The position numbers and the translations under genes are program-made. Below the pieces are notes generated by a model that was not told where the DNA came from, did not search any database, and saw nothing but the letters and a program-made list of their open reading frames with translations. A stretch of 24,331 bases of DNA from a virus (lineage: Duplodnaviria; Caudoviricetes): IMG/VR virus record IMGVR_UViG_3300022932_000024, positions 1-24,331 of that record; one strand, written 5' to 3'. Below, in pieces: positions 10,972 to 24,331 of the stretch. The number at the start of each line of letters is the position of its first letter. Position 1 is the stretch's first letter.

Positions 10972-11751
10972 CTAAAGAGAACTTAACTGGTATGTATCAT
11001 CGCCAAGAAATATAACAGTTTCATAAGTTAATTCAACGGTATCTTCGTTAATCATATGTACGGCATATTCAGGACCAGCTATAGTTGCAGTACCGTCTCC
11101 ATTATCAGTTACTCTAAATATAGCATTAGCTTCAAAGAATTCTAAGATCTCTTTGATCGTAGGCATACTTGGGTTTAAAAGAGCCGTTCCATATAAATGA
11201 TCTTCAAGCCATTTTATAGTTGCTGGATATGCTTTTGTAGTATCAATTATAAAATGAGATGTAGCACGAGCATCCGGTATAACAACAGGAGTAGTAGATA
11301 TAGACCAGCTAAATAAATTAGGATCTATTACTCCACTATTAGAAACATTAGATCGCTCTGTTGGAGTAGCTAAAGCGTTATAAACAAGATGTATTAAATA
11401 TCCCTTGTTTTCATTTATCTCATCCGCAAGTTTTGTTCTATAAGAAAAATTGAATTTCTTACGTCGTTGGTTTGAAAAACCATATTCATTATATCCATCA
11501 TACTCTTCGAATTCATCAGGAAAAGTAAATGCACTAAGTATAGCAGCAAAATCACCTATACCAAGTTCAGTAGAATACCGGTTTCCATCAACAAATATGA
11601 TTTTTCCTGTTGATGTATCGCTTTCTAATTCGCTGACAGAAATCAACCCATTCCAAGGCACACCGGGGCCGATCGTAGGGTAAAAAACGCCATGATCGAC
11701 CCCTATTTCATAACGACGAGATTCAAATGTATCCCACTCTAATCTAGTCAT
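10972..11751 (-). CDS. Major tail (tube) protein paralog 3, 259 aa
   Basis: N-terminus MTRLEW...YEIGVDHGVFY...VPWNGL...AFTFPDEFE...FSYRT...IHLVY aligns by eye with 13574..14452. Confidence 0.85.
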   Translation of the reverse strand: MTRLEWDTFESRRYEIGVDHGVFYPTIGPGVPWNGLISVSELESDTSTGKIIFVDGNRYSTELGIGDFAAILSAFTFPDEFEEYDGYNEYGFSNQRRKKFNFSYRTKLADEINENKGYLIHLVYNALATPTERSNVSNSGVIDPNLFSWSISTTPVVIPDARATSHFIIDTTKAYPATIKWLEDHLYGTALLNPSMPTIKEILEFFEANAIFRVTDNGDGTATIAGPEYAVHMINEDTVELTYETVIFLGDDTYQLSSL

Positions 11752-11768: not shown

Positions 11769-12962
11769 TTAATTCCATGTTTTAAGCAGTGAACGAGAAA
11801 AATCTACAAAACTTTCCCAGCTATAATTATTACCATCTACACTGGGGAAACTACCATCAAAATATGTTCCTAATATTGCTGATTTTTCTAATAATCCATT
11901 ACTAAATATAACAACGCTATTAGCAGAAGACGGCGATTTAACAACAACATTAAGTTTAGCCCTATTTGTTAAAGCTGGAAAACTTCCACTAGTAATAGTC
12001 AGAAGTTTTTTTTGTCCAGGCGCAATGACAATAGTAGGTCCATAATAAATTTCGGGACTTCCCAAAGATTTAGAAGCAACTATAGATAAACATAATGTAA
12101 TTTCATTTGAAGAAAATGGTACTTCAACTTCCATGGACGCTGACCAAATATCATTTGGTACCGTTACATGATTATCCATATCAAATAATATTATATCATT
12201 TGTATTTTTAGCGTCAATCAGTGTTAAAGTACCACTTGATAATCCTCCAGATGGCGATACCCATCCTGGACCAATTCCAAAACGAGGATTTCTTACTTCA
12301 TTTATACGTTGATAACCTTCAGGTCCAAGACTGCTAAATAATGTTAATAATTCAGTTACTAACGGCATTCTAGGCTCAGACAAAGATGTTCCGTAAAGAA
12401 TATCCTCTATATATTTAAGTAGTCCCTTTGGTGTGGTTCTAGAATCAATAACAAGATGTGCTGTTGGTCTAATACCCGACATTACAGGAGGAGTAGTGGT
12501 AATTGACCAACTCAAAGAAATAGGGTCTGTAGAACCGCCAAGACTCGTGCGATCACGACTTGACGGTCCTGCTAGAGCTCCATATACTAAATGAATTTTA
12601 TAGCCTAGGTCTAAGCCTGAAATATCATTTCCGACTTTAGTACGGTAGCTAAGACTAAATGGTTTACGAGGTTGCTGAGTTGCTGTTAACCCAGCGTATA
12701 AAGTTTTAGCGCCATCGCATACACCAAATTCAGCCGGAGCTGAGAACGCTTCAATAGTCGCTTCAAACTCTTCTGTTTCAGAGATGTTCAGGTACTTTAT
12801 ACCGTCAAGATAAAAAGGTTTTGGTCCGCCACCTTGAGATGACTCTTGGATTGACTTAAGACCATTCCATGCCACGCCTAAGCCATTTACATATAGGACA
12901 CCACGATCAACGCCCGATTCAAAATATCGCTCACCAATTTTACCCCATAATAATTTAGTCAT
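11769..12962 (-). CDS. Major tail (tube) protein paralog 2 with C-terminal extra domain, 397 aa
   Basis: MTKLLW..IGERYFESGVDRGVLY...WNGL...IKYLN...EEF.ATIEAF...LSYRT...KIHLVYGALA.PS aligns with the major tail protein; about 180 aa beta-rich C-terminal extension. Confidence 0.85.
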   Translation of the reverse strand: MTKLLWGKIGERYFESGVDRGVLYVNGLGVAWNGLKSIQESSQGGGPKPFYLDGIKYLNISETEEFEATIEAFSAPAEFGVCDGAKTLYAGLTATQQPRKPFSLSYRTKVGNDISGLDLGYKIHLVYGALAGPSSRDRTSLGGSTDPISLSWSITTTPPVMSGIRPTAHLVIDSRTTPKGLLKYIEDILYGTSLSEPRMPLVTELLTLFSSLGPEGYQRINEVRNPRFGIGPGWVSPSGGLSSGTLTLIDAKNTNDIILFDMDNHVTVPNDIWSASMEVEVPFSSNEITLCLSIVASKSLGSPEIYYGPTIVIAPGQKKLLTITSGSFPALTNRAKLNVVVKSPSSANSVVIFSNGLLEKSAILGTYFDGSFPSVDGNNYSWESFVDFSRSLLKTWN

Positions 12963-13573: not shown

Positions 13574-14452
13574 TTAGAAAGTGTAACCCCAGTCAGTATC
13601 AACATCATCGGGGAACGAGTAGCCGTTAGCCGGGAAGGCAGTGACAAGCTCATTCTTAGTGATGGTGACTGCACCAGTCTTGGTAACACCATTAATCTTG
13701 TAGATGACACCCGGAACAGTCGGGATCGTGATGACCTTAGTGGTACTATTGTACGTCGGAGCAACCGGAGTAGCTTCAACAATAGCGCCATTAAACAGAG
13801 CAAAGACCTCCGCAGGAAGCGGAAGACGAGGCTCTGCCCCAATGGTACCATACAGGATGTCCATAAGAGCATTCAGTGCGGCAGCGTCAACACGCTTCGA
13901 GTTGATGGTAAGCGTGGCAGAAGGCTTGTACTGCGTTCCATCAATCTCACCAACTTCAACAGCAGTCGTGGTGAATTCCCAAGAAAGCGCGAGCGCCTCA
14001 GGAGAATCATTTACCGTTGCACGAGCCTTCTCGGAGGGTGCAGCAAGTGCTCCCCAGACAAGGTGAATCTTAAATCCGTAGTCGGTACCATCGATATCAT
14101 TACCGATGAGAGTGCGGTACGAAAGACCGAACGTCTTGCGGCTCTGCTGTCCAATGGACACGCCTGCGACGGGGGAAGCTGTACCATCGCACTGCTCGAA
14201 CTCGTCAGGATATGTGAATGCCTCAATGGTGCCACCGAACTCTTCAGCAGCAACAAGGTTGAGGTACTTAATGTTATCCGCGTACTGCGGAGTAGCTTCG
14301 GCGCCAGAGGGAGACTCGGTTACAGTCGTAAGACCGTTCCAAGGCACACCACCAACGTAGTTACCACCCGCATCTGGGATGTAGAGAACACCGTGGTCGA
14401 CACCGGTTTCGTAGAACCGCTCACCTACCGCGTCCCATTTCAAACGAGCCAT
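13574..14452 (-). CDS. Major tail (tube) protein with C-terminal Ig-like domain, 292 aa
   Basis: AAGGAG RBS; phi13-like tube motifs WNGLT.VTESPSGAEA...YADNIKY; follows tail terminator; GC-rich codon usage like the capsid gene, consistent with high expression. Confidence 0.92.
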   Translation of the reverse strand: MARLKWDAVGERFYETGVDHGVLYIPDAGGNYVGGVPWNGLTTVTESPSGAEATPQYADNIKYLNLVAAEEFGGTIEAFTYPDEFEQCDGTASPVAGVSIGQQSRKTFGLSYRTLIGNDIDGTDYGFKIHLVWGALAAPSEKARATVNDSPEALALSWEFTTTAVEVGEIDGTQYKPSATLTINSKRVDAAALNALMDILYGTIGAEPRLPLPAEVFALFNGAIVEATPVAPTYNSTTKVITIPTVPGVIYKINGVTKTGAVTITKNELVTAFPANGYSFPDDVDTDWGYTF

Positions 14453-14794: not shown

Positions 14795-15107
14795 GATACA
14801 CACCACCTAGCCTTACTTCAAGGCGAACGCCTACTGGTTTAACGTTAGACGCAATCCAGTAGGCGCCCTGGTACTTGACATATCTCATAGCAAAGTAGTG
14901 TTCCCCAGCATATGCATCACGCACAATACTAATGGTTACATCTAGGCTAAGGTCTTGATTGACCTTTTCACCTTCTCTTAAGCTCCTAGCTGGAGTAGGA
15001 AGGACGTCACCGGAAGCGGGATGCTCCACGATGACGTCCTTCCATACACTAGGCGCTGTTTCTACGTGGTCTTCGGCATAGCCGATAACGTCATGAAACT
15101 TTGCCAT
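14775..15107 (-). CDS. Head closure (head-to-tail stopper) protein, 110 aa
   Basis: Size and position after capsid; ISIV.D.YA..H...MRYV...G..W.......RL...LGGVY pattern of stopper proteins. Confidence 0.75.
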   Translation of the reverse strand: MAKFHDVIGYAEDHVETAPSVWKDVIVEHPASGDVLPTPARSLREGEKVNQDLSLDVTISIVRDAYAGEHYFAMRYVKYQGAYWIASNVKPVGVRLEVRLGGVYRGPFPA

Positions 15108-15113
15108 TTTGAT

Positions 15114-15131
15114 TAATCTAGGAGTAGATTA
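15114..15131. repeat. Perfect 7-bp inverted repeat TAATCTA-N4-TAGATTA overlapping the capsid stop codon
   Basis: Read directly: taatcta ggag tagatta at 15114..15131. AT-rich stem with no U-tract, so not called a terminator. Confidence 0.5.
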
Positions 15132-17243
15132 GTAAGAGATGTCGAAGACGCGCTCCGCGGTGTGCGGGAACGAGTAGTTGGTCGCCGGACGAGCCTCGAC
15201 CTGAGTGTCCTCGGTGATCACGACAGTCGCCGCAGCAGCCTTGTCGACTCCGTTGATGGAGTAGATAACACCAGTGGTTGACGGGATCGTGATGGTGTGA
15301 GTACCACCGTTGTAGTTCGGCTGAGCCGGGGTAACAACAGTGCCCGGGTTGCGCTTGATGACAAGAGCAGACTTCGGCTTGGTCAGCGCACCAGAGATGC
15401 GAGTCTCAAGCAGGTACTTCATCTGGTTGAAGTCGATGTCGAAGTCGTCGAAGAAGTTGATCTCTCCGCCGCGGTCTGCACCAACGGTGTAGTCAGCAAG
15501 GTTGACGATAACACCAACGAGCTCAGGAGCATCCTCCATGACCTCAACCGGAACGATGTCCTTGACACCAAGTGCCGCAGCAAGCTGCTGGCGAGTGTCG
15601 TAGAAACGACGGTTCAGGGTGTCCTTATCAAGCAGCAGATCCGAGAGAACGCGCTGCGTGGTGTAGAACGTCGGGTTACCCGAGCCCTTGTAGTCAGCGA
15701 GAGCACGCGTGATCGCCTCATTGGTCTGAAGCGCAGTCGCGCTAGCACCAAGGGTAACCACGTGCGAGTACATCTCGTCGTCCCACGCGATCGGACGAAT
15801 GTGGTCCTCGTCGATCTTGTCCTCGTCATCAGCATCGCGGCCGTCACCGATAAGGATCGCGCGAGCGATTTCCTCATCGAGCATAACGCGCATCTCAGCC
15901 TTGATCCATGCAACAACATCAATGTCGACAATGTCGATGATGTCATCCCGGTCCAGCTTCTGCTTCTTGTAGATGGTCTTCGGACCGGTCACGCGCTTCA
16001 GGAGCTTGATAACCTCGTCCTTCTTGCGGGTAGCCTTCACGTAACCCTTGGCGCGTGCCTCGTCTGCAGTAAGGTCTGCAGCAAGCGACTTAATGCGCGA
16101 GAACGGCGAGTGACGGGTGGAGCTAAGAACATCAGCAACCCACTCGGTACGACGGCTGATAAGCGAGATGCCGTTCTGGTCCAGACGGGCGTCCGGAAAC
16201 AGGAACTCAATGTCGTCAATACCATAGTCGCCATCGGCGTGCTGAAGATCCTCAGGAAGGATCTCATCGGCGTGAGCAAGGAACGTGTCCTTGAACGAAC
16301 GCTTTCCCTGGTATGCTTCCTGAACAAGCTCCTGAACCTGGCCGTGCGAGAGTTTCGTACGGTTCTGAGTGGTGCCGCCGTTAGCGGACTGCGTCTCGAA
16401 GACGTTTCGTGCCATTTCGAATCCTTCCTGGTGTGCGATAGTTAGATCTTCTGGGCTAATCCCAGAGTGCTCAACAGAGCCGTCGTTGCTCTCAAGAGCC
16501 TCGCCAACCATGTAGTGTAATACGTCTTTCTGCTCTTTGGACATACTCTCGTAGACGTCTTTGACAGTCATGTCGCCATCGGCGTGCTCGAGGTCCTCTT
16601 CCTGCTGGTTCCCCACGATGTCTCCCTCATTGTTTGTGCCATCGTTTTCCGTGGCGTCAGATTTGTTTTCGACTTCAACGTCATCGACGTTGTCCCCATC
16701 GTTGTCCTCAGAATCTGATTCAGAGTCTTCCGTATCGGTGTCCTCGTCGTCTTCATCAGGAACTTCGTCATCTTCATCATCACTATCGGAGTGAGATATA
16801 AACAGTCCAGTATAGATTTCTGCCTCAAAAGAGGACTCATCTCCATGTGCTAGACTGTCATTGACAACATCAATGAATGCTTCAGGATTAGCGCCTGCGA
16901 GTACAAGGCTAACTTCCTTAATGTTTCCATGAACGACGTCTCTACCCTTTTGGGTAAGCTGTCGTGCGAATATAGAAAGCTGGTTAACATCTCCATGCAT
17001 AACGAGCTTTTTGGCTGAATTACCGGCTGGGGTGTCATTGAAAAATGCCTGGGTGTAAACACCCTCTGGCTTATTCTTAAGAATTGCATAACCCAGAACA
17101 TTTTCTGGACTGTTATGCTGGTGCTGCCAAACAAGAGGAACTTTGGTTCCATCCTGGTGAGCAAACGCGTTTTGCTTGATGGTACGACCGTCAGAGCAAA
17201 GCAGGTCATTCTTACTGGCCCAACCACTGAAGTCAGGTTTCAT
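15129..17243 (-). CDS. Fused prohead protease - scaffold - major capsid protein, 704 aa
   Basis: aa 1-130 HK97-type protease motifs (PLVWQH, LSIFA, EVSLVLAGANP.A); aa 130-340 very acidic linker/scaffold; remainder HK97-fold capsid-like (EEIARAILIGDGR, NLADYTVG.D.GG, DFDIDFNQ.KYL.ETR.SGAL) plus C-terminal Ig-like domain; no internal stop. Confidence 0.93.
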   Translation of the reverse strand: MKPDFSGWASKNDLLCSDGRTIKQNAFAHQDGTKVPLVWQHQHNSPENVLGYAILKNKPEGVYTQAFFNDTPAGNSAKKLVMHGDVNQLSIFARQLTQKGRDVVHGNIKEVSLVLAGANPEAFIDVVNDSLAHGDESSFEAEIYTGLFISHSDSDDEDDEVPDEDDEDTDTEDSESDSEDNDGDNVDDVEVENKSDATENDGTNNEGDIVGNQQEEDLEHADGDMTVKDVYESMSKEQKDVLHYMVGEALESNDGSVEHSGISPEDLTIAHQEGFEMARNVFETQSANGGTTQNRTKLSHGQVQELVQEAYQGKRSFKDTFLAHADEILPEDLQHADGDYGIDDIEFLFPDARLDQNGISLISRRTEWVADVLSSTRHSPFSRIKSLAADLTADEARAKGYVKATRKKDEVIKLLKRVTGPKTIYKKQKLDRDDIIDIVDIDVVAWIKAEMRVMLDEEIARAILIGDGRDADDEDKIDEDHIRPIAWDDEMYSHVVTLGASATALQTNEAITRALADYKGSGNPTFYTTQRVLSDLLLDKDTLNRRFYDTRQQLAAALGVKDIVPVEVMEDAPELVGVIVNLADYTVGADRGGEINFFDDFDIDFNQMKYLLETRISGALTKPKSALVIKRNPGTVVTPAQPNYNGGTHTITIPSTTGVIYSINGVDKAAAATVVITEDTQVEARPATNYSFPHTAERVFDISY
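16413..16429 (-). promoter_or_regulatory. Candidate internal RBS and ATG (Met277) for a capsid-only product
   Basis: AGGAAGGA-ttcgaa-ATG GCA CGA in frame with the polyprotein at 16415. Confidence 0.5.
16614..16628 (-). promoter_or_regulatory. Candidate internal RBS and GTG (Val210) for a scaffold-capsid product
   Basis: GAGGGAG-acatc-GTG in frame with the polyprotein at 16616. Confidence 0.35.
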
Positions 17244-17318
17244 TAATATACCTTTTCTTCCTGGTTAATAGTTATTTGATATAGTCGTAAATCCGACTTT
17301 TATGTACTCATGGGCTAC

Positions 17319-18665
17319 CTATGTAACACCACCAGCTAGACTAGCATCCACTTCAGCTTCAAGTTCATCTAAAGTCTGTTGTAGCATAGCGTTTTTTTCA
17401 GCAAGATCCATGTCATCACTGCTAGGTTCAACAGATGGGACTACTTCAGATCCGGCAGCCTGGGGCATATTAGAGTTCATGAGTTGATCGGATTTAGGCT
17501 CAGCGTTAGGCTTAAATCCAATAGAACCACGGATTTCATTAGGCGTAAGTACCTCGTTACGACTGAATATATCAGTAGCTGCTGCAATATCAGCAAGAGG
17601 CATTGTCTTGAATGGATCACGGAAATAGAGTATACTCTGCTTCTGTGTACGCGCAGTTTTGGTAAGAAAGGAACGACGCATAGCTTCAAGAACAGCATTA
17701 ACAACCGGTGCAATCGTTCGATTGTGGTAGTTTAGCATAGCTTTTTCGTCAGCTTCACCAGTGAAAACACTTTCCGTTAGACCAAGCTGACCATAGAGCA
17801 TCTCAGTTAAGAATTTAACCTGACTGAGAAGATTGTTTTCTGCTGGTCTGTTGAGCTGTGTGATTTTCTCACTAGCATCTGTATAAGCTATACCATACTG
17901 GTTACCCTTTAGCTGGTTCTCAATATCTCTAGCGCGAATCTCAGCTGCATCGCGGCGTGACTCGTGCTTGATAGCATAAGGAAGCTGAATGATAATATCA
18001 AGTTTTCCTGAGCTCGAGGCTTCATCAATAGCGTCAAGCATACTGAGCTTTCGAATAAGCCTCTGCAGAGTGGAGTTAGGCTCATTCATTACTGAATATA
18101 GCGGGTTTTCCACAATAGCAACCATTCGCTTGGGAAGGGTTACCTCTTCTTTTCTACCCTTTTTATCGTTCCACAGTAATACACGAACATGCTGTGGGAA
18201 CCACTGAACAATTTCTCCAGTTCGAAGAGATAGAATATTATAGCCGCCAGTAGCCTTAGGATCAAGATCGGTATCAACTGGCACAATTGCGACAACGCCT
18301 TTTTCAAACATTGTCATAAATATATCTTGCCGGAAAGCTGTTGCCGCCTGGTCTATGTTGGCTTCAACTGTAAGACAATCATTTAGACCAGAATCAACGT
18401 CAGAAGCGTAGCGATTGCTTGAGTCTAGCTTAACATGCCGCATTTCAATAGCTGCCGCGTCAATACTCAAACGTGTGTATATAGATCCAATGATTGACTT
18501 ATCACCCATAGATCCAACACGTCGTCGATCAGGACGCGTACCATAAGAAGCTCCATATTGAGTTTCCATACCTCGGTAACGCTGTTCTTCATTATCACCA
18601 AAGACGTTAAAAGCGTGCGCTAAAGAATTACCAACAGTAGCTATACGGGAAAAGAGAGACGCCAT
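17319..18665 (-). CDS. Portal protein, about 448 aa
   Basis: AGGAGGTG RBS spaced 7 nt from ATG 18665; lies between terminase region and protease; HK97-like portal motifs (GLNDCLTVEANIDQ, LTPNEIR..IG.KP). Confidence 0.93.
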   Translation of the reverse strand: MASLFSRIATVGNSLAHAFNVFGDNEEQRYRGMETQYGASYGTRPDRRRVGSMGDKSIIGSIYTRLSIDAAAIEMRHVKLDSSNRYASDVDSGLNDCLTVEANIDQAATAFRQDIFMTMFEKGVVAIVPVDTDLDPKATGGYNILSLRTGEIVQWFPQHVRVLLWNDKKGRKEEVTLPKRMVAIVENPLYSVMNEPNSTLQRLIRKLSMLDAIDEASSSGKLDIIIQLPYAIKHESRRDAAEIRARDIENQLKGNQYGIAYTDASEKITQLNRPAENNLLSQVKFLTEMLYGQLGLTESVFTGEADEKAMLNYHNRTIAPVVNAVLEAMRRSFLTKTARTQKQSILYFRDPFKTMPLADIAAATDIFSRNEVLTPNEIRGSIGFKPNAEPKSDQLMNSNMPQAAGSEVVPSVEPSSDDMDLAEKNAMLQQTLDELEAEVDASLAGGVT

Positions 18666-18707
18666 TATCATTCACCTCCTTTCGAGATTTAGTAAATATA
18701 GTCATTG

Positions 18708-19169
18708 TCACCCGTAGGTTTTAAGTAGATCCTGCTTAGAAGAACTGTTCGTTTTAGCAGCATACACAATGGAAGTAGCTAGTAATACGTTAGACGCAAA
18801 ACCGGCACCCGCTTTTACTTTTGGATTCTTAGCGATTAAAGAAACGCCGGCAGTGCCGAGACTACCCCAAAGACCCGCAACCATTGTTCGACCAAGCTTT
18901 TTAGTTCGTTCGCTTGTGTCGTCACGGGTAGCCGTTTTTACACTGCCCATCTTTTTGGCATAGGCATTACGAATCTTATTCTTAAGCCGCTTACGATCGC
19001 TGAGAAGTTTTCCCCTGCTGTTTGTAGTGGTGCTGACTTTTTCAATTTTACGAGTACCCCAATGCATACCTGCAACACCATAGTGCGCAAGCACATCAGG
19101 GTCATCCGGATCTATTCCAGAATGGAGTAACGCAGAATATAATTCAACGCTCATATCATTGTTATCCAT
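18708..19169 (-). CDS. HxGVxGMxWG-motif protein 6 (putative head cargo), 153 aa
   Basis: Start moved to ATG 19169 (1 nt after the upstream TAG, AGGAAG RBS). MDNNDMSVELYSALLHSGIDPDDPDVLAHYGVAGMHWGTRK, then basic region and two hydrophobic segments. Confidence 0.8.
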   Translation of the reverse strand: MDNNDMSVELYSALLHSGIDPDDPDVLAHYGVAGMHWGTRKIEKVSTTTNSRGKLLSDRKRLKNKIRNAYAKKMGSVKTATRDDTSERTKKLGRTMVAGLWGSLGTAGVSLIAKNPKVKAGAGFASNVLLATSIVYAAKTNSSSKQDLLKTYG

Positions 19170-19170
19170 A

Positions 19171-19722
19171 CTAGTACTTCCTATTCGGGTCGTATCCGCC
19201 TGCGCGAGTGTTAATACCAACGGCAATATCGCCGGCCATCATGTTACCCACATAAGCAGCTCCCGAAGATGCTGCTACTCTAACTGCAGGAGTATTAGCA
19301 AATGCAGCTATAGATGAAATTGCTGGTCCTGCGCCACTACCAAATATCTTAGAGACAAACTTCTGTCCTCCGCTTGATTTAGCTACTTTTGAAAGAGCAG
19401 ATATACCAACGTTAGCAACTACAACTCCGCCAAGAGTACCAGCGACTTTTCCGCCCTGTCGGACATACTTGTTACGTCCAAGAACTTTATCTCGACGAAG
19501 TTTTTCGGAACCTCGAGCTGTGGATATAGAATCACCACGGTTAAGATTCTTGTTTATTCTCTTAGCTCCACCACGACCATAAACTTGCTTATCACGCTTA
19601 CGCTGATCGTTGGTGTAGTTTGGATTATCGGCGTTTAACTCTCGTTTACGCTGACCCCACTTCATGCCCGGAACACCAAAGTGAGCGAGATAATCTTCAA
19701 ATTCTTCTTCAATAGTGGACAT
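19171..19722 (-). CDS. HxGVxGMxWG-motif protein 5 (putative head cargo), 183 aa
   Basis: TGATG coupling to upstream gene; MSTIEEEFEDYLAHFGVPGMKWGQRK, basic region, Gly/Ala-rich hydrophobic C-terminal half. Confidence 0.85.
   Translation of the reverse strand: MSTIEEEFEDYLAHFGVPGMKWGQRKRELNADNPNYTNDQRKRDKQVYGRGGAKRINKNLNRGDSISTARGSEKLRRDKVLGRNKYVRQGGKVAGTLGGVVVANVGISALSKVAKSSGGQKFVSKIFGSGAGPAISSIAAFANTPAVRVAASSGAAYVGNMMAGDIAVGINTRAGGYDPNRKY
19655..19689. repeat. 35-bp direct repeat copy 1 (encodes LAHFGVPGMKWG)
   Basis: ccccacttcatgcccggaacaccaaagtgagcgag; 33/35 identical to 20948..20982. Confidence 0.85.
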
Positions 19723-20465
19723 CAAGCCCCCTGAGTTTCTTTAAGCTTTTGTTCTTTCTTAAACGCAGCTGCAGCCCCCTGATTAACAGCAAGTGTACCG
19801 GCAACCATAGAAGCGCCATAAGTCATTAAAGTACGACCAATAGGATTCTGTGTTACTGCTGCTAAGGTGTAATCAGCAGCTGCCCAAACTTGAGCACCGC
19901 GTGTGTTTGCTCCAAATAACTTGGCTACAAACTTAACACCAGTTTTGGTACGGTGAACGCTGTGAAGAGTTCGAACTAAAACATTGGCACCAATTGCAGC
20001 TCCGGTTCCAGCAAGAATGGCTTTACCAGCCTGCTGGCTTCGACGGCTTCGCTCCATGTTACGAGCTTTTGTAGAACTAACTCCAGAACGAATATCTAAG
20101 TTAACTCGATTAGCGCCAGCTCGTCCAAAGTCTTTCTTGGCGTTGTTGTATTTTGTCTGGGTGTTGCCTTCTGCTAAAACGGCGTCGGCCTTACGCTGCT
20201 CTGCTTTATTCTTAATTCCACTGATAACATGAGCAGCAGGAGAAGTGCGCTTAACAACAGAGAGAACCGGTTTCTTGTTAACCGAAAGGAAAGGAGTAAT
20301 ACGTCCTCCACCAGCCTTACGCTCAGCGCGATCCTGCTTACGACGCCCCCATTTCATACCCTCTACACCATAGTGAGCGAGAATATCATCTTCGTTACCG
20401 TCGTCAATACCTGAATGAATAAGGGCATTGCGAGCTGCCTCACTCATGTTTTCTGATTTTAGCAT
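19722..20465 (-). CDS. HxGVxGMxWG-motif protein 4 (putative head cargo), 247 aa
   Basis: GAAGGGGG RBS; MLKSENMSEAARNALIHSGIDDGNEDDILAHYGVEGMKWGRRK; highly basic with hydrophobic helices. Confidence 0.85.
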   Translation of the reverse strand: MLKSENMSEAARNALIHSGIDDGNEDDILAHYGVEGMKWGRRKQDRAERKAGGGRITPFLSVNKKPVLSVVKRTSPAAHVISGIKNKAEQRKADAVLAEGNTQTKYNNAKKDFGRAGANRVNLDIRSGVSSTKARNMERSRRSQQAGKAILAGTGAAIGANVLVRTLHSVHRTKTGVKFVAKLFGANTRGAQVWAAADYTLAAVTQNPIGRTLMTYGASMVAGTLAVNQGAAAAFKKEQKLKETQGA

Positions 20466-20490
20466 TTTTGAATGCCCCCTTCATTTAAAA

Positions 20491-21000
20491 TTATGGACCT
20501 TGAATCTTTTTGCGTGTAGCTTCGTCAGCCATGTCAACAAACGATTGTACGCTGACTGTATTGGCCTCTCTTGCGGCGATTCTATTAGGATCTAACTGAT
20601 CCTTATCAAAGTTAGATCCGGCTATCTTACTACCGATAGAAGAAGCAACAGCGAAACCGCCTAACGCAATAACCGCTTTGCCATATCGGGAAGAAGTTAA
20701 TGATCTGACGGCAAGATTAGCGGTGTTTAAGTTTTTAGGATTTAATACAACAGTCGGGGGCTTCTTTTTAAAAAGAGAAACCACATAAGCCAGACCTTTT
20801 TTCTTAACGGGGGCTGGACCATTCTTAGCAGCTAGATCAGCAAGAGTAATTGCTGCCATAGCGCCGAAAACACCACCCATAGCACCGTTTCTGAACTTTG
20901 ATCTTTTACGATCAATTTCAGCTTGTTCTTGCGGTGTTTTTCGACGGCCCCACTTCATACCTGGAACACCAAAGTGAGCGAGGGTATCTTCATCGTACAT
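20491..21000 (-). CDS. HxGVxGMxWG-motif protein 3 (putative head cargo), 169 aa
   Basis: GAGGA RBS; MYDEDTLAHFGVPGMKWGRRK; basic with two Gly/Ala-rich hydrophobic segments. Confidence 0.85.
   Translation of the reverse strand: MYDEDTLAHFGVPGMKWGRRKTPQEQAEIDRKRSKFRNGAMGGVFGAMAAITLADLAAKNGPAPVKKKGLAYVVSLFKKKPPTVVLNPKNLNTANLAVRSLTSSRYGKAVIALGGFAVASSIGSKIAGSNFDKDQLDPNRIAAREANTVSVQSFVDMADEATRKKIQGP
20948..20982. repeat. 35-bp direct repeat copy 2 (encodes LAHFGVPGMKWG)
   Basis: ccccacttcatacctggaacaccaaagtgagcgag; 33/35 identical to 19655..19689. Confidence 0.85.
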
Positions 21001-21018
21001 TAAATATCCTCGCTCACT

Positions 21019-21270
21019 TTAGTTAGTTTTTTCAGCAGCTTTAAACAATGCTGTAATTTCAAATATGTTGCCGTCATCCATTGGAGAGAACTCTTCAAAA
21101 ACACCGGTCTTCTGATTAACAGAAAAGAACGGGTCCCAAATACCCTCATCGGGATCATCGGTAAATATCTTGAAAAGCCAAACGCCATGGTAATCTATTA
21201 CCGATTGAATCTTACCTTTTGGATAACTTGAAGTTGCAATCGCTGCGGCGTTTTCTAAATCAATCAACAT
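21019..21270 (-). CDS. Putative immunity protein (Imm35/YrhB-like), 83 aa
   Basis: Overlaps the toxin-like gene by 11 nt; small, acidic, aromatic-rich; only gene in the array lacking the leader motif; pattern A..IA...GVWLF...PFFSVN.KTG resembles Imm35/YrhB as I recall it. Confidence 0.6.
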   Translation of the reverse strand: MLIDLENAAAIATSSYPKGKIQSVIDYHGVWLFKIFTDDPDEGIWDPFFSVNQKTGVFEEFSPMDDGNIFEITALFKAAEKTN

Positions 21271-22426
21271 TTCGAATCCACCTTAAAAGATAATCTTCGT
21301 TAAGATCAATATTGTCAAGACGAGTAAAGCCTACCTGTGAGAATACTTCTTGTTGTGCATTTGTCGGTTTAATTATACCAGCATCTTTAAGCATCTTTGA
21401 ATAGTCTTTTATAATATCGTCTACAGACTCGTATTTTATACTTCTCTGAGCGTCAAATACGACAGCTTTTCCGTTGACAATCTCATAAGCCATACTATGA
21501 CCACCGCCAGCGCCCCACATAACTCCTAATTCCCCACGAGCACCATTTGGTTGCTTTGCAAGAACTGAAAATATGTTATCAAGACCGCCACTCACTGGAG
21601 CAACATCAATATTATTACGAGCACCCGCTGCAAGTTTATCCGTTAAATCAAATACCGGAGTAGCTTTTCCGTTTGCTTTATTAATAGACTCTTTTAATAC
21701 CGTTTTGGCTGTGCCGAATGAGTTAGTAGAAAGAGTCTTTTTTCCAGGACGTATCGCGTTAAGCAACCCAACAGACGTTTGACCATACGCGTTAGTCGTT
21801 CTGGTAGCCATAACATCGTTGCCTCGACGGCGCATCTCATAAGCAAAAGTGGCGCGACGACAATTCATCTTTGTGCCAATACCTTTACCATACATTGGGT
21901 TGATGGGTTTAACAACTTTAGCCATGATATCGTCAACACTCATTGCGGCATGAGCAAGGTCGTCGCTTCTTTTAAAAGCAACAACACTCTTACCTTTGGT
22001 AGCAATAAAGTTTGCGCCTTTAGACGCGAGTTGCCGAAATACACCACTTTGTAATCCACTATGTGTACTTCTAGCTAAAATAATACTACCAACTGCTACT
22101 CCACCGATAAGTAGTTTTTTCTCAGTGCTTGTGAGTTTTCCATTACGCTTCTTTTCAGCGTCAGCAATTAGCTGATTCTTTTCTTTGGTAAGATCTTTAA
22201 TATCGCCGTTTATAAGACGCTGTCGAAAAGCACTATCGGTTTTTATAGCGTTCAGTGCTTTAATCTTAGTTGACATGACATTGGCTTTAGCCTGAATCTT
22301 ATCAGCCTTAGCTTCGTAAGCGGCTTTTTTGTCTCGAGCGACTTTTTCGGGGCTCTTTCGAACGCCCCATTTCATACCAAGTACGCCCGCGTGCTCAAGG
22401 GAGTCTTCTACTAAAAGGTTAGACAT
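21260..22426 (-). CDS. HxGVxGMxWG-motif protein 2 with C-terminal papain-fold toxin-like domain (Tox-PL/glutamine deamidase-like), 388 aa
   Basis: AAGGGAG RBS; MSNLLVEDSLEHAGVLGMKWGVRK; coiled coil; one hydrophobic helix; N-C189...AYEMRRRG.DV.A, GARG..GV.W..GGGH310, VFD325AQ. Confidence 0.8.
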   Translation of the reverse strand: MSNLLVEDSLEHAGVLGMKWGVRKSPEKVARDKKAAYEAKADKIQAKANVMSTKIKALNAIKTDSAFRQRLINGDIKDLTKEKNQLIADAEKKRNGKLTSTEKKLLIGGVAVGSIILARSTHSGLQSGVFRQLASKGANFIATKGKSVVAFKRSDDLAHAAMSVDDIMAKVVKPINPMYGKGIGTKMNCRRATFAYEMRRRGNDVMATRTTNAYGQTSVGLLNAIRPGKKTLSTNSFGTAKTVLKESINKANGKATPVFDLTDKLAAGARNNIDVAPVSGGLDNIFSVLAKQPNGARGELGVMWGAGGGHSMAYEIVNGKAVVFDAQRSIKYESVDDIIKDYSKMLKDAGIIKPTNAQQEVFSQVGFTRLDNIDLNEDYLLRWIRNVD

Positions 22427-22447
22427 AACACTCCCTTAAAAATATGG

Positions 22448-22828
22448 TTACTTGTCGTAAATCTTAAGTAAATCGTCTCCAGCAGAACGCTCTTCAAGAC
22501 TTTGCATAGTGACTGATCCTACAGTTGCCAATATAGCAGTAGCAGCAAGAACGCCTTTAGAGATTGGTTCGGGGTCAAGGATAGTAAGAACAGCAGCTCC
22601 AAGTGCAGCGATAGTGAGAGCGGTATCTGCTTTTCCAAGCTTAATGGTCTTTGAACTACGGTCGTCTCGATGCGCGTTCTTTCCGCGATTTTTTTCAAAC
22701 ATAGCGTTGTTAACACGCGCACGACGACTTAATGGTTTACCATTCTTTGACTCGATTTTGCGTTGCCCCCAGTGCATACCCAAAACGCCATAGTGGGCGA
22801 GGGTATCATTCTCGTTTGAAATATCCAT
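22448..22828 (-). CDS. HxGVxGMxWG-motif protein 1 (putative head cargo), 126 aa
   Basis: GAGGAG RBS; MDISNENDTLAHYGVLGMHWGQRK; basic region then hydrophobic hairpin (ALTIAALGAAVLTILDPEPISKGVLAATAILATVG). Confidence 0.85.
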   Translation of the reverse strand: MDISNENDTLAHYGVLGMHWGQRKIESKNGKPLSRRARVNNAMFEKNRGKNAHRDDRSSKTIKLGKADTALTIAALGAAVLTILDPEPISKGVLAATAILATVGSVTMQSLEERSAGDDLLKIYDK

Positions 22829-22851: not shown

Positions 22852-24331
22852 TTACTCGAATTCGCCCTTATTGAGCTTCCATGCTATAAACGCATCCATC
22901 AAGGCAGCCACATTATCAATCTTGGCGTCTTGACGCTTCTTCATGAGTTTGCGGTTACCATTAGTATCTTCAAGAGTAATAGCGTTACCCATGGCAAACA
23001 TCATGAGTAGTTGATCGAATCGAAGCATACGCTGTTCACTTAAATGTTTAAGTTCTCCAAGAGGCACCGACTCAGTGCGAGCACCCTGGATAACCTTCTC
23101 TATACCAAATACGCCATACTCTGCTTCCCAGCGAGCAACAAATTCTTTTGCATTGTATGGATCAAATCCAAAGGCTCGAACGTCATACTTATTGAGAATA
23201 ATGAAATTCTGAAGATCATCATAGACGTCCATCATGTCCAGAATATTGCCGTTCATGACAATAAGAGTACCTTCATTTAAGAACTCTTCATACTTCTGGC
23301 GCATAGCTCCGGGGAGCTTGGTTAGCGTGTACTCTGAAATATAGCTTCGGGTTTTAACACCAAAAGAACCATCAGTCAAAGGAAATAAGAATGTGAATGC
23401 ACAGAAATCATCACCCTGTGAAAGGTCTGCACCCAAAGAGCAAGGCATGTTATCATAGAATTTATTCCTATGCACAAGAGTCTCTTCATAGGAAAAGAAG
23501 TAACTCCAACCTTCCATTGGTATACCAAAGCGCTTCGCCAGAATATCATTCTTCGAAGATGGTGCTTTTTCAGCTCGTTCTACATCCTGATGATAAGTAT
23601 CGTAGGACACAGTCTTTCCAAGGTTAGGCTGAGCCTTAAGCCACATGGCAGGATCGCCAACTTCTTCAATTTTGTCAAGTCTATACCACCAGACAGAAAC
23701 CTGAGGAGCAGGATAGTCACCCTTAAGAATGTCAGTTAATTCCATTTTGATAGTATCGCCACTACCGTTACGGACTGTACCCTCTGAGCTAATTGCAACA
23801 ATTACCCAGTCGTCAAGCTTTGATGCACCCTGCTCAATAGCACCGACTACATCTTCTCGAACATCTCCAGAGAGCCATTCGTCAATAGTTGATACTTTTG
23901 GTCGAAGTCCCTGTAGCTTGTTGACCGACATAGGTCTGATCTCAAGCAAAGAACCCGTTAGAAAGTTCTCAATACCCTTCTTTGTAGAAGCTAGCTTCAC
24001 ACGAAGTGCACGGTTACCCGTGGTGTTCTGCATTGACCCCTCAGTCAGGAACTTGAACAGGGGTCCTCGAGAACGTGTAATAGCGGTTCTGAAAGGGCTC
24101 ATTACCTCGTCGGCCTGCTTCATAGTAGGAGCAGTAGTGATCTGGTGGGTGGTCGCTGTATCGATGTTGAGGAAGTAAGATTGTATGCAGTAAGCATACA
24201 TACTCTTTGCCCCGCCTCGAGCGACAATTAAGTACTGCTTGTAGCGAACGCGCTTCTTGATCATCTTACGGACATAACGTCCACCATGATGATCTGCGTC
24301 AGGCACGTAAACACTACGTTCAACAAACTCA
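22852..24331 (-). CDS. terL: Terminase large subunit (5'-truncated by the window edge)
   Basis: Frame is open to the edge (EFVERSVYVPDADH...); Walker A VARGGAKS, Walker B STIDE, ISSEG coupling motif, nuclease motifs LGADLS.GDD, FDPYNA, KIDNVAALMDA. Confidence 0.95.
   Translation of the reverse strand, partial: EFVERSVYVPDADHHGGRYVRKMIKKRVRYKQYLIVARGGAKSMYAYCIQSYFLNIDTATTHQITTAPTMKQADEVMSPFRTAITRSRGPLFKFLTEGSMQNTTGNRALRVKLASTKKGIENFLTGSLLEIRPMSVNKLQGLRPKVSTIDEWLSGDVREDVVGAIEQGASKLDDWVIVAISSEGTVRNGSGDTIKMELTDILKGDYPAPQVSVWWYRLDKIEEVGDPAMWLKAQPNLGKTVSYDTYHQDVERAEKAPSSKNDILAKRFGIPMEGWSYFFSYEETLVHRNKFYDNMPCSLGADLSQGDDFCAFTFLFPLTDGSFGVKTRSYISEYTLTKLPGAMRQKYEEFLNEGTLIVMNGNILDMMDVYDDLQNFIILNKYDVRAFGFDPYNAKEFVARWEAEYGVFGIEKVIQGARTESVPLGELKHLSEQRMLRFDQLLMMFAMGNAITLEDTNGNRKLMKKRQDAKIDNVAALMDAFIAWKLNKGEFE

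Follow-up and report, generated by a model that had tools for sequence, protein, structure and literature searches.

Positions 1 to 24,331 of the IMG/VR virus record IMGVR_UViG_3300022932_000024 (Caudoviricetes), referred to below as the window, are, judged by their genes, a piece of a 1706-like siphovirus genome. Between the gene of the terminase large subunit (terL) and the portal gene, the window carries six genes whose products begin with a common tag, in which an acidic leader ends in L-x-His and is followed by the conserved stretch [YFA]GVxGM[KH]WGxRK. The same type of tripeptide, [LIV]-x-His, recurs along the linker of the adjacent capsid polyprotein, and this shared pattern is real and far beyond chance. 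The reading towards which we lean is that tag and polyprotein belong to a head-cargo system resembling the capsid-targeting sequence (CTS) of phage T4, which would be cut after His and would carry a virion RNA polymerase together with some toxin-like enzymes.

The proposed mechanism starts from an observed arrangement, in which an intact S78 protease, an acidic linker and a capsid domain form one polyprotein. The protease very probably cuts after hydrophobic-x-His, nine times in the window, and would in this way remove itself, the scaffold and often a short propeptide of the portal. There are good grounds to expect that the tag addresses proteins to the assembling prohead, which packages them. 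The acidic leader would then, with fair probability, be removed, leaving the conserved peptide as the N-terminus of a strongly basic protein fit to sit on the packaged DNA. In the last step, which we favour only slightly, the tagged proteins would be ejected with the DNA into the next host. The core cargo would be the single-chain RNA polymerase of the lineage, which would start early transcription and whose gene, carrying the variant tag LxH-YGxxRxSGRYPWG, lies outside the window. The variable cargo would include conflict enzymes such as the product of the gene c2, from which an untagged neighbour would shield the producing cell.

Hydrophobic-x-His sites in the capsid polyprotein

The 704-residue polyprotein, like all genes of the window, is encoded on the minus strand. 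It consists of a prohead protease domain (16845..17243, residues 1-133; PF04586, 30.7 bits against a cut-off of 21), an acidic scaffold linker (16239..16847) and an HK97-type major capsid domain (15129..16238; PF05065 with E 1e-4, which is under the cut-off, and phrog_3270). All nine His residues of the linker (residues 125-344), namely His133, 151, 220, 243, 259, 271, 300, 324 and 335, stand in the [LIV]-x-His context, and none of the five His after residue 345 does. Shuffling the linker 200,000 times gave at most six such sites. The sequence-only reading had reported nine copies of the tripeptide in the scaffold and close matches between the surroundings of tag and scaffold sites (LEHAG and LEHAD, L[IL]HSGID and VEHSGIS, LAHY and VLHY), and both observations were reproduced.

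The pattern was followed through the family, for which polyprotein open reading frames (ORFs) of more than 550 amino acids were kept from 80 IMG/VR loci and the window and reduced to 64 relatives under 90% identity. In these, [LIV]-x-His accounts for 355 of the 438 linker His (L/I/V frequency 16.7%), for 36 of the 153 His of the capsid domain (L/I/V frequency 23.9%) and for none of the 47 His of the C-terminal module, while in other proteins of the same loci (portal body, TerL and tail proteins) its share is 14-32%. Of the twenty amino acids, only His is strongly enriched two residues after L/I/V in the linkers (4.86-fold); Tyr comes next (1.96) and Glu stands at 0.99. The residue after His at linker hydrophobic-x-His sites is Ala, Ser or Gly in 309 of 413 cases, and the spacing between sites is irregular (11-69 residues). 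In the 49 sporadic, non-homologous linker columns, 60 of 104 His show the pattern, as do 19 of 31 singletons. In 60 of the 64 relatives the distance from the protease anchor to the first site is 7-8 residues, and in 61 the last site lies at most 10 residues from the capsid anchor; therefore, the sites bracket the part to be removed. According to the available text of PMC9026906 and PMC7411985, the T4 protease gp21 recognises L/I-X-E and cuts behind it, repeatedly in the scaffold but only once in internal proteins, and the [LIV]-x-His pattern is thus of the expected form, with His replacing Glu. These comparisons strongly suggest that LxH is a maturation site cut by the prohead protease, and the mature capsid protein is predicted to start at Ala325 or Ala336, with a mass of 42.2 or 40.9 kDa. 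In a relative (L138:4499-6451, minus strand), protease-scaffold and capsid are found in two in-frame ORFs parted by one stop codon, which may be a sequencing error, a read-through site or a true split.

The protease itself, of the S78/assemblin fold, looks intact in both sequence and model, and its activity is predicted. His41 and Ser90, which the sequence-only reading had named as catalytic, occur without exception in all 94 proteases compared, and so does Asp85; the roles are assigned by conservation and order and not by geometry. The protease model (predicted local distance difference test score, pLDDT, of 94), compared with the use of Foldseek, matches phage prohead proteases (E 1e-10, template modelling (TM) score about 0.8) and herpesvirus proteases/assemblins (E 1e-4). 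No solved structure matching the polyprotein or the tag was found. The portal protein (17319..18671, PF04860) carries LAH at residues 17-19 (18615-18623), followed by AFNVF. The portal site proposed earlier is thus present in the window, and LxH[ASG] is common in relatives (67 of 89 anchored N-termini), which rules it out as a universal feature.

The tagged genes, their lineage and their candidate cargo

The six tags of the window (LAHYGVLGMHWGQRK, LEHAGVLGMKWGVRK, LAHFGVPGMKWGRRK, LAHYGVEGMKWGRRK, LAHFGVPGMKWGQRK and LAHYGVAGMHWGTRK) all exceed the curated cut-off of the Pfam family DUF7211 (PF23847), with 34.3-42.9 bits against 27. They have the architecture that the sequence-only reading described for six genes between terL and portal, and its remark that the GMKWG motif is a domain of unknown function agrees with the Pfam entry. 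The leaders are acidic (isoelectric point, pI, 4.1-4.4) and variable, the bodies are basic (pI 9.9-11.2), and the invariant residues of the tag are the His and the Gly/Trp behind it. Because only the part behind the His is conserved, the address probably resides in this peptide rather than in the leader. The same charge distribution was observed among 205 distinct tagged proteins: 78% are net acidic over the ten residues that precede the His, and 98.5% have a net basic body. In 181 of them the tag falls inside the first 60 residues of the reading frame, and 11 have several tags. In the 94 loci that hold both terL and portal (not de-duplicated, window included), 96 of the 167 tagged ORFs are placed upstream of terL, 68 between terL and portal and three beyond the portal; the six of the window are the highest number in the terL-portal interval. 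The literature, with limited coverage of subscription journals, yielded no account of the function of the tag or DUF7211, of GMKWG, of proteolytic cleavage in phage 1706 or of His-specific head maturation.

The distribution of the tag was followed in two collections. Scanning of viral contigs with the tag only (164 of about 3,800 estimated stretches) gave 70 distinct loci with flanks. All 43 of those with a whole polyprotein have one of the present type, other capsids not being sought by profile, and in these 43 polyproteins [LIV]-x-His accounts for 209 of 295 linker His. Most of the remaining loci carry the closely related terL or portal. Six loci, from four contigs (L092, L100-102, L122 and L125), have no head gene in their flanks; two of these contigs hold the polyprotein elsewhere, and one is a 65%-complete record without it. 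The genes neighbouring these tags resemble the 1706-like lineage, and L122 encodes the polymerase of the lineage. Tags in other lineages were considered and rejected, as the genomes of Q54 and Maggie contain none and the contigs in question look like members of the same lineage. In 50,697 deposited phage records, a 33-residue tag query (E up to 10) found 932 places in 249 records, compared with 244 records matched by the polyprotein. The two sets agree in genus counts, which were compared instead of record lists, except for Microbacterium (12 against 4) and unnamed phages (4 against 7); one extra Microbacterium match that was inspected is a chance match in an ATPase. The check proposed earlier, co-occurrence of the motif with LxH-rich scaffolds, thus gave a positive result, and by sequence, tag and polyprotein are marks of the same lineage.

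Evidence on the virion comes from Lactococcus phage 1706, in which, over the 55 kb read, the tag is found only on gp07 (two tags) and on the RNA polymerase gp75. RefSeq labels gp07 a 'structural protein', and the ReqiPoco6 record uses the name '1706_gp75 structural protein' for gp75. These labels reportedly derive from liquid chromatography-tandem mass spectrometry of 1706 virions, said to have been published by Garneau in 2008 and to have detected 15 proteins; on that unconfirmed figure, two hits out of two would have a chance probability of about 0.04. No mass spectrometry of 1706 or ReqiPepy6 was found among the matches listed, no Mushu proteomics were found in the literature, and the available text of PMC5883640, 10.1101/2020.01.10.891226, 10.1101/2022.11.23.517428 and PMC5759034 contains no virion proteomics. 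The single-chain polymerase with its DFDGD motif, which bioRxiv 10.1101/842583 describes as well, is present in 251 records; 80 near-identical polymerases (82-100%) were left out of the counts. Its variant tag occurs in L122, and in 11 of 11 records read the N-terminus has an acidic leader, [LI]-x-H and [YIV]G-x-x-x-x-SGRY[PE]WG. The earlier proposal of head-packaged cargo is therefore supported by the annotation of both tagged 1706 proteins as structural, and the polymerase, which had been overlooked, is the strongest candidate for an essential cargo.

In the window, the tagged gene next to terL, c1 (22448..22828, 126 amino acids, tag 22757-22801, His12), encodes a basic body with two mildly hydrophobic stretches and is a paralogue of c6 (18708..19169, 153 amino acids counted from ATG, tag 19047-19091, His29; 32% identity, E 5e-7). 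Similarly, c4 (19722..20465, 247 amino acids, tag 20337-20381, His31) is a paralogue of c5 (19171..19722, 183 amino acids counted from ATG, tag 19645-19689, His14; 31%, E 9e-10). In front of their tags, c4 and c6 have an additional site, LIH (His17) and LLH (His16), respectively, each followed by SGID. The remaining two are c3 (20491..21000, 169 amino acids, tag 20938-20982, His9) and c2 (21260..22426, 388 amino acids, tag 22355-22399, His12). These paralogies rule out six unrelated bodies; the six tags described earlier stand, and a seventh, untagged gene (21019..21270) lies within the cassette. Five of the six bodies are basic, Gly/Ala-rich and mildly hydrophobic (best 19-residue hydropathy 1.3-1.6), and an Atlas structure search with the body of c5 returned DUF7211 clusters only and no fold.

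The sixth body, that of c2, has a C-terminal domain of a toxin family (PF15644, 27.4 bits against a cut-off of 24.1), a papain fold with the catalytic residues Cys189, His310 and Asp325 in place and with predicted activity. A second LAH site (His159), followed by Ala, lies just before this domain; the single-sequence structure model of c2 was too poor for use (pLDDT 37). The end of c2 is overlapped by the untagged gene, which encodes an acidic protein of 83 amino acids. Untagged genes for 72-83 amino acids stand behind the papain cargo in six of seven loci, three of them (L017, L104 and L029) homologous to the window protein, and in the seventh locus the neighbour has 139 amino acids and itself ends in a tag. 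The 83-residue protein is likely an inhibitor or immunity protein, for which the resemblance to PepSY (E 0.027, under the cut-off) and to PepSY/Imm35 in the Atlas (TM 0.61-0.64, under the bar) serves as a lead only. The modular effector-delivery cassette envisaged by the sequence-only reading thus fits c2 with its inhibitor-like neighbour and not the other five bodies; the term 'effector cassette' holds for a minority of the genes.

A Pfam scan of the 61 longest tagged proteins (at least 230 amino acids, out of the 205) found DUF7211 in 60, the papain-fold family PF15644 in seven, 2H phosphoesterase in seven, GNAT in three, DUF5662 in two (one with Ntox50) and, weakly, ADP-ribosyltransferase in one. 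A passenger enzyme family is therefore present in 20 and absent from 41. The locus L114 has four tagged units in one frame, and L149, of the same build, has a papain domain at its end; this suggests polyproteins that are cut at the tags. Processing into units also agrees with the two tags of 1706 gp07 and with LxH sites located inside proteins ahead of enzyme domains.

Further variants of the tagged genes were noticed in relatives. In L092:9455-10408 and L122:5134-6057, a DUF5662 domain, an internal tag and a variable C-terminal domain (Ntox50 in L092) follow one another, and both genes are located among replication genes, far from the head module. In L082:1960-3576, L004, L015, L018, L053, L089, L091 and L103, a 2H phosphoesterase (LigT-like) is fused before the tag, with additional LxH sites in between; relatives of this fold degrade cyclic-nucleotide defence signals. 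A third class headed by LxH, with YDPxKAxEYY replacing GMKWG, occurs between portal and polyprotein (L082:11190-11840, L083:10324-10965, L084:7397-8008 and others). A hydrophobic-x-His stands directly before its motif in nine of 11 cases, and the gene is missing from the window.

Counter-evidence and rival explanations

A number of observations weigh against a His-cut cargo system. About seven linker columns are homologous across many relatives, and the family counts are therefore not independent. The protease domain shows [LIV]-x-His at 210 of its 416 His, which may be self-digestion sites or strand periodicity. In the unrelated protease-capsid fusion gp7 of Arthrobacter phage Maggie (L341:3704-5287), six of nine His have the pattern, mostly in the protease part and one at the protease end. 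Since the protease domain and this untagged fusion both show it, beta-strand periodicity can yield [LIV]-x-His. As to the portal, 22 of the 89 N-termini lack the site, and that position of the same helix is occupied by Asn, Gly, Arg, Ser, Gln or Met. What is conserved in the tag stands behind the His and would, unlike in T4, remain on the mature protein, and the residue after His is H, Y, F or W in 216 of 223 tags compared with nine of 413 scaffold sites. Five of the six window bodies match no enzyme family in the Pfam profile search. The virion status of 1706 gp07 and gp75 rests on annotation labels, and two further 1706 proteins labelled structural, gp62 and gp71, have no tag. Finally, the co-occurrence of tag and polyprotein in a single lineage is one evolutionary event and no proof of a functional link. 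The Maggie sites may also be viewed as a sign that His-directed processing extends past the tagged lineage, or as strand periodicity; in the fusion protein of Q54, two of five His are [LIV]-x-His, and there is no His in the first 270 residues.

The explanation that survives best besides the favoured one, although we consider it unlikely, is that the tagged proteins are packaged and trimmed but are mostly structural, as a DNA-neutralising basic core or as pilot proteins that cross the envelope, with only the polymerase and occasional enzymes acting in the host. It would account for the basic, partly paralogous bodies without an enzyme domain in the window, for the 41 long tagged proteins without a passenger family and for the fact that every member of the lineage seems to have at least one tagged protein. 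It is less easily reconciled with the mosaic content and the copy number, which ranges from one to nine places per genome, or with the papain, GNAT, 2H-phosphoesterase, ADP-ribosyltransferase, DUF5662 or Ntox50 domains in 20 of the 61.

Also unlikely, and slightly more so, is a role of the tag in docking only. In this case the LxH of the tag would mimic a scaffold site and bind the protease or the scaffold, and the aromatic residue behind it would block or slow the cut, so that the cargo is loaded uncut. The contrast in the residue after His, which had been overlooked when maturation after His was first proposed, is an argument for it: either the protease tolerates a residue kept for binding, or the tags are cut slowly or never. 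In addition, the upstream scaffold-like LxH-SG sites of c4 and c6 could be the real cut, and Asp at position 10 of the T4 CTS stops processing and not targeting, as the available text of PMC9026906 describes. However, the aromatic residue is not obligatory, because c2 has Ala and 1706 gp07 Arg and Lys at this position, and cutting is suggested by the multi-tag polyproteins and by the abrupt change of charge that coincides with the His. The part of the original claim concerning scaffold maturation keeps its comparative support, from the His enrichment and the bracketing of the linker.

It is improbable that the tagged proteins are not virion cargo and that the protease, made late, acts on them in the cytoplasm, either activating or destroying them, as in a shut-off of the polymerase late in infection. 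The polymerase gene does lie far from the head module, and a protease site by itself does not imply packaging; however, both tagged 1706 proteins are annotated as structural, 164 of the 167 tagged ORFs in the 94 loci are found upstream of terL or between terL and portal, and prohead proteases are considered to act inside proheads (available text of PMC9026906 and PMC7411985). Least probable of all is an uncut LxH that serves as a structural or metal- or pH-sensing motif in co-assembly of scaffold, portal and cargo: His is a common metal ligand and the protease keeps invariant Cys16, Asp18 and Glu110 and near-invariant His43 and His105, but the sites bracket the linker exactly, with a hydrophobic residue two before, a small one after and irregular spacing as in the T4 scaffold. 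Relevant to this last view, we know of no His-specific prohead protease, and none was found in the literature.

Gene layout, related systems and implications

The window reads as terL (22852..24306; PF20441 E 5e-36, phrog_9), whose real start may lie past the window end, followed by seven small genes, the portal, the polyprotein and head-tail and tail genes; its source record is a fragment, about 42% complete. One DNA run, from a leaf-litter metagenome, may be its origin; among the runs listed as containing the sequence there was none of RNA. The polyprotein (phrog_3270, E 1e-231) reaches at best 61% identity, with Microbacterium phage Count. Its matches are distributed over Arthrobacter (95), Gordonia (55), Streptomyces (54), Lactococcus (13), Curtobacterium (7), unnamed (7), Microbacterium (4), Rhodococcus (4) and a few other genera. 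The fused protease-capsid gene with the close terL and portal is a signature of the lineage and is present in the window. As described in the available text of bioRxiv 10.1101/842583, this lineage unites the actinophage clusters AM, AU, AW, BI, CC, DJ and EL with Lactococcus phage 1706 and Faecalibacterium phage oengus, and the fused capsid-protease gene and a putative RNA polymerase are named among its signatures there and in PMC5513430. As far as the text of these papers and of the DUF7211 entry is available, they give no function for the tag, mention no LxH sites and do not tie the polymerase to the virion.

Several features of the window concern its structural genes. The polyprotein and the major tail protein (13574-14452) share a C-terminal module (15132-15347 and 13574-13770, minus strand; 55% over 56 amino acids, E 1e-14), probably a surface immunoglobulin-like or decoration domain, which is missing from the capsid in some relatives. 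Two further genes (10972-11751 and 11769-12962, minus strand) have starts resembling that of the major tail protein, and duplication of tail genes has been described, in the sources available in part, for the 1706-like lineage. The guanine plus cytosine content of the capsid gene (15001-17000) is 51-56%, compared with 35-48% across the remaining window, as would be the case for a highly expressed gene adapted to a host of high GC content. Promoter-like sites in the window showed no excess (16 against 14.5 in shuffles).

The proposed system works like the T4 CTS by analogy but is not a member of that class, because the residue before the cut (P1) differs, the conserved part stands on the other side of the cut and the protease is fused. 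In the available text of PMC9026906 and PMC7411985, the T4 system (IPI-III and Alt, cut by gp21) has a short N-terminal signal common to unrelated, basic, non-conserved passengers, and one hydrophobic-x-P1 tripeptide common to scaffold, shell and passengers with many cuts in the scaffold. Both features have their counterparts here, as does, at sequence level only, an N-terminal propeptide ending in the scaffold-site tripeptide. However, P1 is Glu in T4 and His here ([LIV]xE 0.99-fold, [LIV]xH 4.86-fold in the linkers), and the targeting residues of T4 lie within the ten residues that are removed, whereas the conserved stretch here follows the cut. Moreover, protease, scaffold and capsid form one polypeptide in a siphovirus, and the tags are also internal and in tandem. 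The head ejection proteins of phiKZ and SPN3US, cut after motifs of the A/S-x-E type, likewise have redundant sites in acidic propeptides and include a virion RNA polymerase, but these phages are jumbo myoviruses, whose propeptides are long and whose polymerase has five subunits (PMC7411985 and PMC9026906, available text). The present lineage differs: its siphoviruses have 43-114 kb, share a tag of 15 residues and encode a DFDGD polymerase made of a single chain. In MuF-fused polymorphic toxins of temperate phages, a delivery element in the head module precedes a variable toxin domain, after which a small immunity gene follows. The arrangement of c2 and the 83-residue gene resembles this, but no MuF domain was found in the window proteins or the 61 long tagged proteins, the carrier is the 15-residue tag, and the majority of the passengers cannot be recognised as toxins.

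A more far-reaching version of the favoured reading, which we put forward tentatively and hold to be rather doubtful, is that a His-specific prohead protease and a transferable 15-residue tag, serving as a general address for head loading, are common to the whole, widespread lineage. The capsid-fused protease would then be the cargo receptor, its cut would expose a conserved N-terminus and thereby license ejection, and the polymerase would be delivered along with a changing set of enzymes (papain-fold toxins, GNATs, 2H phosphoesterases and ADP-ribosyltransferases). In this version, DUF7211 would be a searchable barcode for hundreds of injected phage proteins. The lineage has more than 200 cultured relatives, and its hosts are actinobacterial, lactococcal and gut firmicute.

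Summarizing, if the head-cargo reading is true, a Pfam family that marks a whole phage lineage would gain a function, and two predictions would follow: cleavage after His by a prohead protease and, in mid-sized siphoviruses, an RNA polymerase carried in the virion. Head proteins that are injected are difficult to recognise from sequence, and in this lineage a short tag would pick them out, at about 930 places in about 240 genomes of cultured or deposited phages. The proteins so listed would be candidates for host takeover and counter-defence, and protein delivery would gain a tool comparable to the T4 CTS, in the form of a short loading tag for phages of Gram-positive hosts.

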